18,499 nucleotides of DNA from a virus: UHGV virus genome UHGV-0188240. One strand, 5' to 3'. A program made the translations under genes and the position numbers. Below are positions 1,520-9,711 of this stretch, piece after piece. Under the pieces are notes generated by a model. It did no database searches. It was not told the DNA's origin and worked only from the letters and a program-made list of their open reading frames with translations. Position 1 is the stretch's first letter; the number at the start of each line of letters is the position of its first letter.

Positions 1520-1594
1520 TGGCGGGACAGCGTGGACTCGAACCACGATAAGAAGGTTAACAGCCTTCCGTAATGACCTTTATACGACTGACCC
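1520..1594 (-). tRNA. tRNA-like gene, 75 nt, anticodon GUU (Asn-like), encoded CCA
   Basis: Manual fold: anticodon stem GAAGG/CCTTC with loop CTGTTAA, T-arm CGTGG-TTCGAGT-CCACG, acceptor GGGTCAG/CTGTCCC with one T-T mismatch, 3-bp D-stem; lies 5 nt upstream of the other tRNA on the same strand. Confidence 0.55.
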
Positions 1595-5273: not shown

Positions 5274-5560
5274 TGCCTTACCTCCATAAGCGCCCTATTA
5301 ATAAACGCCGTCATTGGATTTGCACATCCCCACCCCGTACCATCTGGATTTCTTTTAATTGGCTCCTTCTTCACTTTGCGTTTCGCATAAATAACCGTCT
5401 TCCACTTACGCTCAACAACACTCAAATGCCCTTGTTTCACCATATGCCTTGCTGCTTGAGCGATTCTGTTATTTGGTATTCCGGTGATCAGAGCTAATTC
5501 ATGTGGGGAGAATTGTTCATGAGTTTTCAGATATTCCAGGATGATTTCTTTTCCAGTCAC
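5270..5560 (-). CDS. hypothetical protein, possibly HTH/winged-helix DNA-binding, GTG start
   Basis: 96 aa; GTG start in GTGA overlap with the DnaC-like stop, SD AGGAG 6 nt upstream; lambda ren position but no recognised similarity. Confidence 0.45.
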   Translation of the reverse strand: MTGKEIILEYLKTHEQFSPHELALITGIPNNRIAQAARHMVKQGHLSVVERKWKTVIYAKRKVKKEPIKRNPDGTGWGCANPMTAFINRALMEVRQ

Positions 5561-6450
5561 GATCTGCTCCTGTAACTATCCCATGTAAACGCAAGGGTGC
5601 ATCCGCCGCCATCATTCATCCTGTCAATAACACGCTCACCAATGAATGCCGAAAGTTCATCTTTGCTCTGATTACTAATCAGGATTGTTGGCTTCATGTA
5701 TTCATATCTGGTGTTGATAATTTCGAACATGATTAGCTTTTCAGCATCACTGCCGAACTGCACGCCAACCTCATCGATTATTAACAAGTCAGGATGCGTA
5801 AATTGCCTAATGACTTCTTCTTCAGTTCTGGTTGCGGCCTTAGACCATGTTGATTTGTACTCTCTGGCAATTTTCAACGCAGTGGTAAATATCACAGAGC
5901 TTTGATGCTCGATAATGGCGTGCCTAGCGATAGCCAGTGCAAGGTGGTTCTTTCCAGTTCCAGGCTTACCACACATGACCAGTCCGCCACCTTTCTGAAG
6001 GCGTTCAGGCCACTTACTGGCATATGCCTGGCATACCTTAAGAACTCGCTTTGCATCATCGTTAACAGGCTCATAATTCTGAAGAGTGCAATTTTTGAAC
6101 CTCTCTGGAATATTGAGAGAATTCAACAAATATTCAATTTTTGATTGTCTTGCTCTTTGTTCTGCCTGCTCACGTTCAATCTCTTTCTTACGAATTTTCT
6201 CCTCAAGGCACTGTGGGCACTCAGATTTACTTGAAGTAATTCTTTTTCCTGAGATGGTCAGATATTTCTCATAGGAAGTATATTTACCGTGTTTCTCGCA
6301 CTCTTCCACTGTGCTGGTAACTGACATTCCATCTGATGCTGATCCAATTTTGCTAAACTCAAGTTTCTGTTTCAGATCAGAAATGTCATTGATTTTTGAG
6401 TCTACAAGTTGCCTTTGCAGTGCCAGATTGTAACCATTTGTCGTATTCAT
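5557..6450 (-). CDS. DnaC-like helicase loader (IstB-like AAA+ ATPase), replication protein P analogue
   Basis: Walker A GKPGTGKNHLA and Walker B LLIIDEVG; N-terminal Cys-rich segment (C..C, CPQC); start placed at internal ATG 6450 with SD AGGAG, rather than track start 6468. Confidence 0.85.
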   Translation of the reverse strand: MNTTNGYNLALQRQLVDSKINDISDLKQKLEFSKIGSASDGMSVTSTVEECEKHGKYTSYEKYLTISGKRITSSKSECPQCLEEKIRKKEIEREQAEQRARQSKIEYLLNSLNIPERFKNCTLQNYEPVNDDAKRVLKVCQAYASKWPERLQKGGGLVMCGKPGTGKNHLALAIARHAIIEHQSSVIFTTALKIAREYKSTWSKAATRTEEEVIRQFTHPDLLIIDEVGVQFGSDAEKLIMFEIINTRYEYMKPTILISNQSKDELSAFIGERVIDRMNDGGGCTLAFTWDSYRSRS

Positions 6451-6452
6451 AT

Positions 6453-7295
6453 TCACTCCTGCGCCCATGAAGGCATTTCAGTTTGCCCGTAATCTTTGGC
6501 GGCAAAGTTTTCCTGCATAGCTCGCTGCTGCGGCCTCGGTTGAGATTTCCCCTTTGGAGTCTTGGGTTCAAAAATCCCCTGCCAACCACTGGCGATGCTC
6601 TGGTTTATAATTTCTTCAGGTGTATATCCCTTCTCCAGACTTCTGCTTAGAACGTTGATAGCCTGAGTGACACTTTGCTTAGACTTGATCGACTTACCTA
6701 TCTCCTTGCGATAGGTAACCCACGACAACCATGTTTCTGCTGATAACCAATCAGGCAACTCTGTTTCTAGCGGGTCGAACTTCTGAGAAACTTTTTTGGG
6801 GGATATAGGGGGTTTATTAATATTTTCTTTTGTCTTTAAAGAATGTCTTTTGTGTGTCTCTAACTTCGAGACATTGAGTGTCTCTAATTTGGAGACATTT
6901 TTTGTCTCTAACTTCGAGACAAAGTTGCTAACTTGGAGACACTTGCTGAATTGCCACGCAGATACCTCACTGTTTACACCGATTTGATTTCCATCCATAA
7001 ACAGGCAATTCATTGAAATCAGTTCTTTTTTAGCCTTGTTAACATTCTGCCTTGACAGTCCTGTTAACTGAGCAATTTGCTCATCGGCTATTCGATCTGT
7101 TTTCTTATTGAATCCATATGTTTTCCGGACGTAGGCCAGCATAACTTTCAACTGGCGAGCGGTTAAATCAGCACTTGCGATAGCTTCCAGCAGCTCGTTA
7201 GCGAATCTGGTGTAACCATCATCGATATCAGCCACTCTTCGCTCCTGTTCAACAGGTTCACTCTTCGACAGGTAAAATACTTCAGCCAGGCTCAT
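6453..7295 (-). CDS. replication initiator O-like protein
   Basis: N-terminal ADIDDGYTRF...ADLT.RQLKV...RKTYG parallels recalled lambda O; start re-placed to ATG 7295 (SD GGAGG 6 nt upstream); internal tandem peptide repeat VSKLET encoded by the ori iterons. Confidence 0.8.
   Translation of the reverse strand: MSLAEVFYLSKSEPVEQERRVADIDDGYTRFANELLEAIASADLTARQLKVMLAYVRKTYGFNKKTDRIADEQIAQLTGLSRQNVNKAKKELISMNCLFMDGNQIGVNSEVSAWQFSKCLQVSNFVSKLETKNVSKLETLNVSKLETHKRHSLKTKENINKPPISPKKVSQKFDPLETELPDWLSAETWLSWVTYRKEIGKSIKSKQSVTQAINVLSRSLEKGYTPEEIINQSIASGWQGIFEPKTPKGKSQPRPQQRAMQENFAAKDYGQTEMPSWAQE
6855..6941. repeat. replication origin iterons inside the O-like gene, with adjacent AT-rich region at about 6800-6850
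   Basis: Three near-identical 19-bp dyad-symmetric repeats TGTCTCTAA(C/T)TT(C/G)GAGACA at 6855-6873, 6879-6897, 6903-6921 and a degenerate fourth at about 6925-6941, period 24 bp; arrangement mirrors lambda ori within O. Confidence 0.7.
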
Positions 7296-7926
7296 TTCCA
7301 ACCTCCGCATCAAAGCATTGGGCTTCAAGAGACTTAACCATCACCACACTGCCATCTGTATTAATAACTATCGATGAGTTATATTTGCTTATCAGTTGCT
7401 TCGCGTAATCAATTCCGGCGCGAATAAGGAAATTTTTCACCGCAGGAAGATGACCAACTACACTACCCAGACCTTGCTCTATAAGCTCCTCATTAAGATC
7501 AAGCTCATTTTCATGGCGAAAAGAAATGAATGAGTCGTAAATTGCGTATTCTGCCGTCTCGCCATTTCTTTCAGGGCCAACCAGCGCCCTTATTTCATTT
7601 AGAGATTCAGAAAGCTCATTATCTTCAAGCTTGAAAAACTCTCGATTATCACTAAGCCTCTCTTTTGCAAAGGCTTTATGCATGAGTTTTTCATCTGATG
7701 CGGGATTATTTGAATGAAAGGCTGCTATCACCTTAAATGGCTTAGGAACGCCAGTAGAGGCTGAAATTTCTTTAGCCCTAACTTCTGGTGAATGCTTAGT
7801 CATCCCAATCTTATAAATTCCTGGCATGCACTCATTAGAAAGCACATAAACAAAGCCATTTGATTTAAAATCATCTGGCACCTTCATGCTCTTCAGAACC
7901 TGGAATTTGTCATTTTCGTATGTCAT
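7282..7926 (-). CDS. GIY-YIG-like (T5orf172-type) domain protein inserted between cII and O
   Basis: 214 aa; GFVYVLSN...GIYKIGMT followed by conserved R and E positions resembles GIY-YIG / T5orf172 fold; strong SD AGGAG 5 nt upstream; 3' end overlaps the O start by 14 nt. Confidence 0.55.
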   Translation of the reverse strand: MTYENDKFQVLKSMKVPDDFKSNGFVYVLSNECMPGIYKIGMTKHSPEVRAKEISASTGVPKPFKVIAAFHSNNPASDEKLMHKAFAKERLSDNREFFKLEDNELSESLNEIRALVGPERNGETAEYAIYDSFISFRHENELDLNEELIEQGLGSVVGHLPAVKNFLIRAGIDYAKQLISKYNSSIVINTDGSVVMVKSLEAQCFDAEVGNEPG

Positions 7927-7960
7927 AATTACTCCTGTGGATTGATCCAGTCTTTCTACA

Positions 7961-8239
7961 TCAGGCCTCGAAGAATTCGCCGTTCTTCGGGGCTTTTTCT
8001 TTTGTCAGCATTCTGGCTACTTTCTTAGCCAGTTCCGCCAACTCCTCGTCTTCAACACCCCATTCAAGAACAGCCAGAAGCATTCCCATTTTGGGGATGA
8101 AGCTATCTTTCCATCGCGAAATTTGCGATTCATTAATCCCTAACGCGTCGGCAACCTTTCGCTGACCACGTACAGCAATTCGATTCAGGATGTTGCTTGT
8201 AATTGCATTCGCTTTCTTGCGAGTACTTGTAAGTTGCAT
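7961..8239 (-). CDS. cII: cII-like transcriptional activator
   Basis: 92 aa from ATG 8239; QISRWK and MLLAVLEWGV motifs shared with recalled lambda cII; upstream leader (nutR to SD) looks lambda-like, coding region is divergent. Confidence 0.75.
   Translation of the reverse strand: MQLTSTRKKANAITSNILNRIAVRGQRKVADALGINESQISRWKDSFIPKMGMLLAVLEWGVEDEELAELAKKVARMLTKEKAPKNGEFFEA
7969..8003 (+). terminator. candidate plus-strand terminator antisense to the cII 3' end (oop-like position)
   Basis: 7-bp perfect stem CGAAGAA / TTCTTCG with 7-nt loop, then GGGC and TTTTTCTTTT; no convincing promoter identified. Confidence 0.25.
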
Positions 8240-8250
8240 ATGTAAGTATT
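8217..8250 (+). promoter_or_regulatory. candidate PRE-like region with cII-site-like repeat
   Basis: TTGC-N6-TTGT (8217-8230) followed by CATATGTAAGTATTTCC, a lambda-like stretch as recalled; oriented toward cI; tentative because this cII is divergent. Confidence 0.3.
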
Positions 8251-8318
8251 TCCTTAGATAACAATTGATTGAATGTATGCAAATAAATGCATACACCATA
8301 GGTGTGGTTTAATTTGAT

Positions 8319-8358: not shown

Positions 8359-9711
<1,353 letters not shown>

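Follow-up and report, generated by a model that had tools for sequence, protein, structure and literature searches.

A T5orf172-type nuclease-family gene inserted between cII and the replication initiator gene O of a lambda-like prophage

Why should a predicted nuclease gene stand directly ahead of the replication initiator gene O in the early operon of a lambda-like prophage? The question is raised by UHGV-0188240, of which the whole stretch analyzed (18,499 nt) is called the window here, and in particular by its open reading frame (ORF) at 7282-7926 on the minus strand, which we call X. A sequence-only reading of the window had remarked on the strong Shine-Dalgarno (SD) sequence of this 214-aa ORF, on its GIY-YIG-like motifs and on a 14-nt overlap with a re-placed O start, and all three are borne out. 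The ATG of X is preceded, at a spacer of 5 nt, by AGGAG (7932-7936); the motifs GFVYVL and GIYKIGMT lie at aa 24-29 and 36-43; and the best O start, an ATG at 7295 with GGAGG 6 nt upstream, falls inside the 3' end of X, making the overlap exactly 14 nt. X ends in TGA (7282-7284), and a gap of 34 nt lies between the end of cII (7961) and its start.

The same reading had proposed a nuclease fold, and searches with GIY-YIG and T5orf172 profiles agree. X matches Pfam MUG113 (PF13455) over aa 38-111 (1.2e-15; 58.3 bits against a gathering cut-off of 22.3) and T5orf172 (PF10544) over aa 24-112 (1.1e-14; 55.2 bits against a cut-off of 20); both families belong to the GIY-YIG clan. In an alignment of 23 homologs, reaching down to 33% identity, the invariant residues are G24, Y27, Y38, K39, G41, T43, R50, E53, E79, H83, R95, E96, F97 and F98. 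We read these as the GIY...YIG...R...E pattern, in which the candidate catalytic residues (Y27, Y38, R50 and E79/E96), with the Arg and Glu candidates among them, are all invariant. As for the catalytic Glu, the counterpart of I-TevI E75, Odn E180 and SNIPE E414, position arithmetic on the PD-lambda-1 profile favors E79 over E96; an hhalign comparison of the X family profile with the verified I-TevI catalytic domain aligned the wrong motif and did not map this residue. The confident structure model of X shows the nuclease domain as a GIY-YIG alpha/beta fold, a three-stranded sheet flanked by helices, whose best PDB neighbors are Slx1, I-TevI, PD-T4-3 and UvrC (12-13% identity to the canonical Slx1, I-TevI and UvrC), while the family profile found no sequence-level match to any PDB chain. 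PADLOC reported two partial matches, one to PDC-S57, a candidate single-gene system (4e-29, covering only positions 3-94 of the 212 in the profile), and one to the nuclease end of PD-lambda-1 (3.5e-12, positions 355-450 of 496 only). On profile, modeled fold and motif residues together, X is assigned to the T5orf172 branch of the GIY-YIG superfamily. Domains of this type are active nucleases in Odn (ICP1 Gp88), where E180A is inactive (PMC8263062), and in SNIPE/PD-lambda-1, where E414A is inactive (PMC13190303); by analogy with these two relatives, X is predicted to be an intact endonuclease gene.

A chance ORF can be ruled out. A search of 5.8 billion proteins returned 52 relatives, which split into an Enterobacterales family of ~214 aa (55% identity or more) and a ~230-aa subgroup at ~35%. 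Compared with an 83%-identical homolog, X has a synonymous divergence (dS) of ~1.0 and a nonsynonymous/synonymous ratio (dN/dS) of 0.09, alike in its N- and C-terminal halves, and we read both domains as being under strong, long-term purifying selection. The Pfam scores, far above threshold, the homologs and the dN/dS value therefore mark X as a genuine gene under selection, whose nuclease domain looks catalytically intact. What is already known of it is a generic database annotation: in 19 E. coli genomes RefSeq lists it as 'GIY-YIG nuclease family protein' (WP_000220586, for example), its PHROGs families, 8430 and 16524, are both of unknown function, and an NCBIfam search gave no meaningful match. 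One apparent fusion of the X C-terminus to O (P0032) proved to be a frameshifted metagenome call.

Set against phages and prophages that are nearly identical but lack it, X is an insertion at the cII-O junction; it is neither ubiquitous at this position nor has it a known non-nuclease role. On both flanks (6447-7250 and 7921-8256) the window and phage N7 match at 98.5%, but N7 has 42 bp opposite 670 bp of the window, these 42 bp being the first ~16 codons of a lambda-type O gene. The sequence-only reading had X filling the gap between cII and O, and here it needs amending: the short intergenic stretch is kept, and what the inserted cassette replaces is the beginning of O. Linked single-nucleotide polymorphisms (SNPs) at 7240 and 7930 set the outer limits of the cassette, and its GC content at third codon positions is 0.36 against 0.46-0.48 in the flanks. 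The empty junction (...CCACAGGAGTCATTATGACA/AATACAGC...TTTGCC/GAACAGGAGC..., slashes marking the boundaries) is the same in N7 and in three E. coli prophages that differ in their cII genes, and is present in lambda with few base differences; the filled junction is identical in the window, in phage Bas106 and in four E. coli prophages. The heptamer ACAGGAG recurs at the two boundaries (left, CCACAGGAGT; right, GAACAGGAGC); this could reflect microhomology used in recombination, or chance.

The placement has consequences for translation. In carriers X begins on the original SD and ATG of O (...GGAGTAATTATGACA/TACGAA...), and O has 15 new codons, MSLAEVFYLSKSEPV, in place of the lambda-type MTNTAKILNFGRGNFA. 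As judged from these signals, X is translated from what were formerly the start signals of O, with O coupled behind it. The cassette-type 5' end of O is only ever found together with the cassette; all 19 E. coli matches cover the full query.

Carriers are few. Of 5,426 complete E. coli genomes, 19 contain cassette DNA, in every case in a chromosomal prophage, as does one of 50,697 phage records, that of the BASEL phage Bas106. The O allele of the window is found in 46 E. coli genomes, 19 with X and ~27 without. The lambda-type empty junction is present in 1,343 of the 5,426 genomes, at ~1,989 places and with many O alleles. In those 1,343 genomes a stretch of ~113 nt comprising the cII-O junction and the 5' end of O is kept at 90-100% identity, a strikingly conserved linker at a mosaic boundary that also contains the presumed oop promoter, p_o. 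The carriers span at least three O haplotypes, two cII families and at least five immunity types, and SNP haplotypes in O are mixed between carriers and non-carriers, with only positions 7240 and 7930 (no more than 10 bp from the boundaries) linked to the cassette. A second cassette allele (locus L022) sits between the same, near-identical flanks and yet stands at a dS of ~1 from that of the window, the 15 O codons included. Taken together, these comparisons describe an old, discrete unit in frequently recombining flanks, with many other junctions uninvaded. X is still intact in two defective carrier prophages, those of E. coli TST3 (L005) and B1_2 (L006). In both of these the gene for the DnaC-like loader is broken by insertion sequences (ISKpn26, IS3 family).

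The position ahead of a replication initiator extends well beyond E. coli. Relatives of X lie between cII (or YdaT) and the initiator gene in Pectobacterium, Pantoea, Enterobacter, Salmonella phage S107, Proteus phage Brookers and several metagenomic prophages, usually overlapping or abutting the initiator. We surveyed 99 further loci (20 GTDB genomes, 80 IMG/VR contigs), picked by similarity to X, so that the survey describes the X clade rather than all T5orf172 proteins. A co-directional ORF follows the X relative in 94 of them, mostly at -101 to +15 nt, and 21 of the 32 clusters of these downstream proteins, accounting for 80 of the 94 loci, are homologous to labeled replication initiators. 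Pfam finds Phage_rep_O, HTH_36, DUF1376 and DnaT among the downstream clusters, and PHROGs labels 19 of them "replication initiation" and 17 "O-like". On the upstream side, Phage_CII (16 of 38 clusters) or YdaT plus small HTH proteins predominate. Relatives down to ~35% identity hold the slot, and each X subfamily is tied to one initiator type; the exceptions are distant matches confined to the nuclease domain, as in Vibrio phage K303 and some metagenome-assembled genomes. These replication modules seem to attract nuclease genes repeatedly: HNH endonuclease genes are annotated in the nin regions of the related prophages L015, L016 and L004, a few genes downstream of the module, and three of the 32 downstream-neighbor clusters, next to distant X relatives, are HNH proteins.

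The C-terminal half of X is an orphan. It is acidic in every family member (isoelectric point (pI) 4.3-5.9, net charge -2 to -11), as is the whole X protein (pI ~5), and it showed no sequence or fold relatives outside the X family: a search of 1.84 billion representatives returned that family and two repeat proteins (CARDB and Ig) which we dismissed as noise. Pfam found no RepA_N or other initiator domain in X. We also considered whether the domain copies the DNA-binding domain of the neighboring initiator, in the manner of Odn, and rejected this, a BLASTP comparison with the adjacent O giving an E value of 58. Being acidic and dissimilar to O, the domain is therefore unlike the Zn-finger and RepA_N modules that accompany T5orf172 elsewhere. 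The C-terminus reads GIYGP...EF or ...D(E/D)PIPF / DFDDxPF in at least 10 X subfamilies. Conserved tails of these kinds (GIYGPxxPxEF, ...VDEPIPF, ...IPDFDD(A/N)PF and ...FDDDDIPF) belong to relatives next to non-RepO initiators (loci L025, L027, L081, L094, L100-L102, L105 and L078; proteins P0031, P0035, P0040 and P0042). They closely resemble DFDDDIPF, the C-terminal tip of E. coli SSB, and may thus point to proteins recruited to the SSB interactome or mimicking a part of it. The X of the window itself has no such tail.

When would X be made? A simple promoter and terminator scan found no promoter- or terminator-like site flanking X on its strand; we therefore take X to be transcribed from pR together with cro-cII-O-P. 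The pR operon is repressed in lysogens, and expression of X is then predicted for early infection or following induction, and not for the repressed state of the lysogen. An autonomously expressed lysogenic-conversion gene (moron) is disfavored by the same lack of own signals, by the short gap to cII and by the overlap with O. The sequence-only reading had also entertained an anti-host function, but a role as general anti-host DNase is unlikely, because X would be expressed before the lysis-lysogeny decision in phages that still lysogenize.

We tentatively favor, at somewhat short of even confidence, the reading of X as a selfish or conflict endonuclease directed against the DNA of cassette-free relatives. 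X would be made from the pR transcript just before O and would cut the DNA of related elements without the cassette, the candidate target being the conserved lambda-type cII-O junction and O 5' end that is deleted from the carrier genome. A rival cut in this way would be excluded, or else would be repaired from the carrier genome, bringing in X with its linked O/ori module (homing or marker exclusion), with the T4 Seg and ICP1 T5orf172 nucleases as mechanistic analogs. Target choice would probably depend on the conserved acidic C-domain and a putative partner rather than on a classical DNA-reading domain. Several observations speak for such an endonuclease: the presence/absence polymorphism is clean, on near-identical flanks and at one defined site, it recurs in several backgrounds, and it is placed at a classic mosaic boundary. 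The deleted 42 bp lie in a junction that is conserved in lambda and in the 1,343 of 5,426 E. coli genomes counted above, and they therefore resemble a typical homing-endonuclease target, namely a conserved part of an essential gene; that the carrier lacks the 42 bp present in empty relatives is compatible with carrier immunity. T5orf172 homing-endonuclease genes are reported beside essential genes at recombination boundaries (PMC10448857). The nuclease identity of X, its lack of own transcription signals, the strong purifying selection on both domains and the diverged second cassette allele between the same flanks count on this side too.

Other observations weigh against this reading. Spread has been poor, with 19 genomes filled against ~1,989 lambda-type junctions (~1%) and a single O allele involved in E. 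coli, and the SNP haplotypes show no co-conversion tract or gradient in the flanks. Nearly all X copies are intact, unlike in the classical invade-and-decay cycle of homing endonucleases. Relatives at L023, L007 and L009 stand beside an O with a native-type N-terminus, so loss of the putative target is not a general feature. As to DNA-binding modules, X has no recognizable Zn finger, HTH or RepA_N, and its C-domain is acidic and has no fold match. The slot is constant beside differing initiator types, and linkage or a replication-tied function therefore explains it more easily than a sequence-specific homing site does. A simple homing picture, one of the roles first suggested for the insert, is thus weakened by the want of a recognizable DNA-binding domain and by the poor spread, whereas the proposal of a GIY-YIG-family insertion stands.

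Comparison with known systems sharpens what is unusual here. By analogy, X would work most like the free-standing T5orf172 and Seg-type nuclease genes, minus their DNA-binding targeting module. With the T5orf172 homing-endonuclease genes of lytic phages (ICP1, T5-like; PMC10448857) it shares the nuclease domain family, a free-standing gene wedged beside an essential gene at a mosaic boundary, presence/absence between near-identical genomes and a carrier without the empty-site sequence; the T4 Seg GIY-YIG endonucleases are likened to X by analogy. However, 87% of the T5orf172 homing endonucleases have DNA-binding repeats of the Zn-finger type (CapR, DUF723 or DUF4397; PMC10448857), where X has the acidic orphan domain, and X differs further in its temperate lambdoid host phages, its single slot and its weak spread. 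Odn (PMC8263062) is likewise a T5orf172 nuclease with catalytic Arg and Glu retained and a functional tie to a replication origin/initiator system, and it is used in conflict between mobile elements; but the targeting domain of Odn is a RepA_N copy of its victim's initiator, whereas the X C-domain is unlike the neighboring O, and X is encoded beside its phage's own initiator and is not aimed at a known satellite. SNIPE/PD-lambda-1 (PMC13190303) has a homologous nuclease domain with demonstrated, catalytic-Glu-dependent DNA cleavage, yet it is a membrane-anchored host defense protein of ~490 aa with DUF4041, while X is a 214-aa soluble phage early protein; the SNIPE architecture (N-terminal transmembrane anchor, DUF4041, C-terminal nuclease) is not that of X, in which Pfam finds no DUF4041. 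The candidate system PDC-S57 is similar to X in length and architecture, with its C-terminal half unmatched. Finally, the partner domains of Slx1, I-TevI and UvrC (RING, Zn-finger/HTH and UvrC modules) are absent from X.

The constancy of the slot leads to the main rival explanation, possible though rather improbable in our judgment, in which X is an accessory nuclease of the replication module, directed to structures or complexes and recruited through protein contacts (by the acidic C-domain and, in relatives, the SSB-tip-like tail) to replication intermediates, replisome or primosome proteins; it would aid the phage's own replication (e.g. fork or theta-to-sigma processing) or hinder competing forks. 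It would account for X or a relative lying immediately upstream of the initiator in at least 80 of 94 loci, a synteny that spans RepO, 'MARSRN'-type and HTH_36/DnaD-type initiators and Enterobacterales, Pseudomonas and Burkholderiales, and it would fit an acidic C-domain suited to protein binding, the SSB-tip-like tails of at least 10 subfamilies, the best structural neighbor Slx1 (a partner-activated structure-specific nuclease) and the long-term purifying selection on both domains, with copies mostly intact. Yet X is dispensable, being absent from lambda, from N7, from 27 of the 46 prophages with the same O allele and from ~99% of lambda-type junctions; lambdoid gene order is conserved through mosaic recombination whatever the function; and the tail is missing from the X of the window. 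The broader proposal, that X and its relatives are an unrecognized accessory of the replication modules of temperate phages, we consider doubtful; such a GIY-YIG nuclease, translated together with the initiator, recruited by a partner and bearing the acidic orphan domain and, in many members, the SSB-tip-like peptide, would act at forks or origins rather than as a homing endonuclease, and would either process the phage's own intermediates or selectively destroy rival replicons that depend on the host replisome.

Two further roles are less probable still. That X is a defense or superinfection-exclusion nuclease serving the lysogen, SNIPE/PD-lambda-1-like or PDC-S57-like and cutting incoming phage DNA, is quite unlikely: prophages often carry defense genes, the PD-lambda-1 nuclease domain has been proven to act as an effector against phages and the PADLOC matches to it and to PDC-S57 point this way, but only the nuclease domain matches, X has no transmembrane segment or DUF4041, and, unlike typical morons, it has no promoter of its own and sits in the pR operon. 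For PDC-S57 itself, the searchable literature holds no experimental work. Derivatives of the I-TevI and CapR type act in repression, and X might accordingly be a domesticated, non-cleaving T5orf172 regulator that sets O translation by coupling or binds DNA or RNA near oop/ori. The coupling of O to X (by the overlap in the window and by ATGA or 0-12-nt junctions in relatives), the altered -35 of the oop promoter, the original annotation of T5orf172 as 'DNA-binding' (UniProt names) and the existence of domesticated homing-endonuclease relatives (PMC10448857) would suit a regulator; an acidic protein of pI ~5 suits it less, and a derivative without catalysis would not be expected to keep all candidate catalytic residues invariant across sequence divergence of at least 65%, which makes us regard this role as very improbable.

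If X is a nuclease aimed at relatives without the cassette, nuclease-driven gene exchange, as in lytic T4 and ICP1, would extend to lambdoid temperate phages, and the well-known cII/O mosaic boundary would gain a mechanistic cause. If instead X works with the replisome, it would be a new player in the lambda replication paradigm. In either case the X family offers a lead to a T5orf172 nuclease whose targeting domain is no DNA-binding module, and a clean natural pair is at hand in phage Bas106 (with X) and either N7 or lambda (without). No relevant description of a gene in the cII-O interval turned up in literature searches, and the key study of T5orf172 homing endonucleases makes no mention of temperate phages or prophages (PMC10448857). 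The capture of the O signals, the fixed slot ahead of diverse temperate-phage initiators and the acidic orphan domain with SSB-tip-like tails in relatives appear to be undescribed in the searchable literature.

Table 1. Coordinates of gene X, its cassette and the neighboring features in the window
Feature	Position	Strand	Basis or remark
Gene X, 214-aa T5orf172/GIY-YIG-superfamily nuclease-family protein	7282..7926	minus	ORF, Pfam, PHROGs, homologs, dN/dS
N-terminal T5orf172/MUG113 nuclease domain, aa 24-113	7588..7857	minus	Pfam and invariant residues
C-terminal acidic orphan domain, aa 114-214	7285..7587	minus	predicted strand, helix, long helix, beta-hairpin, helix; pI 4.56
Inserted cassette, 670 bp replacing 42 bp of lambda-type junction	7251..7920	minus	BLAST against N7, junction alignments, SNP linkage, GC at third codon positions
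Translation-initiation region captured from O, AGGAG-TAATT-ATG	7924..7936	minus	one base off the O SD and ATG of lambda, N7 and empty prophages
Substitute O start from the cassette: GGAGG SD (7302-7306), ATG 7295, 15 new codons	7251..7306	minus	overlaps X by 14 nt
434-type cro	~8359-8570	minus	
cII, 92 aa, immediately upstream of X	7961..8239	minus	
Replication initiator O (Phage_rep_O type)	6453..7295	minus	allele occurs with and without the cassette
DnaC-like loader	5557-6450	minus	
ori iterons within O: a 24-nt unit present 3-4 times, core TGTCTCTAACTTCGAGACA	6850..6944	.	~340 bp downstream of X
oop-type intrinsic terminator (14-bp stem and T-run), antisense to the cII 3' end	7963..8005	plus	7963-7995 within the cII 3' end; as in empty relatives, untouched by the insertion
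Putative oop promoter remnant	7901..7929	plus	sequence inspection

The surroundings of X are those of a lambdoid early-right operon, which runs on the minus strand as 434-type cro, cII, X, O and DnaC-like loader (Table 1). The iteron core within O is palindromic (TGTCTC...GAGACA) and is mirrored in a repeated NVSKLET peptide of O; a tie between X and ori specificity was rejected, as carriers and non-carriers share the O allele and the iteron variants. The oop promoter remnant is presumably the p_o known from lambda. Its -10 (CATAAT with a TGT extension) is kept and overlaps the start codon now used by X, and its -35 has changed from the TTGAGT of lambda and N7 to TGGAAT, now in cassette DNA, so that the extent to which oop controls cII by antisense action may differ in carriers. 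A simple promoter scan of the window did not call p_o, and no oop model exists in Rfam, a scan with which matched only two tRNAs elsewhere in the window. These two tRNA genes (1442-1514 and 1523-1594, minus strand, 55 bits each) lie in the late-regulatory part, as in many lambdoid/Stx-type phages. On the plus strand, just downstream of the 434-type cI repressor and in the position of rexAB, a 158-aa ORF (9235-9711) has an internal signal-peptide-like stretch and may be a lysogen-expressed moron.

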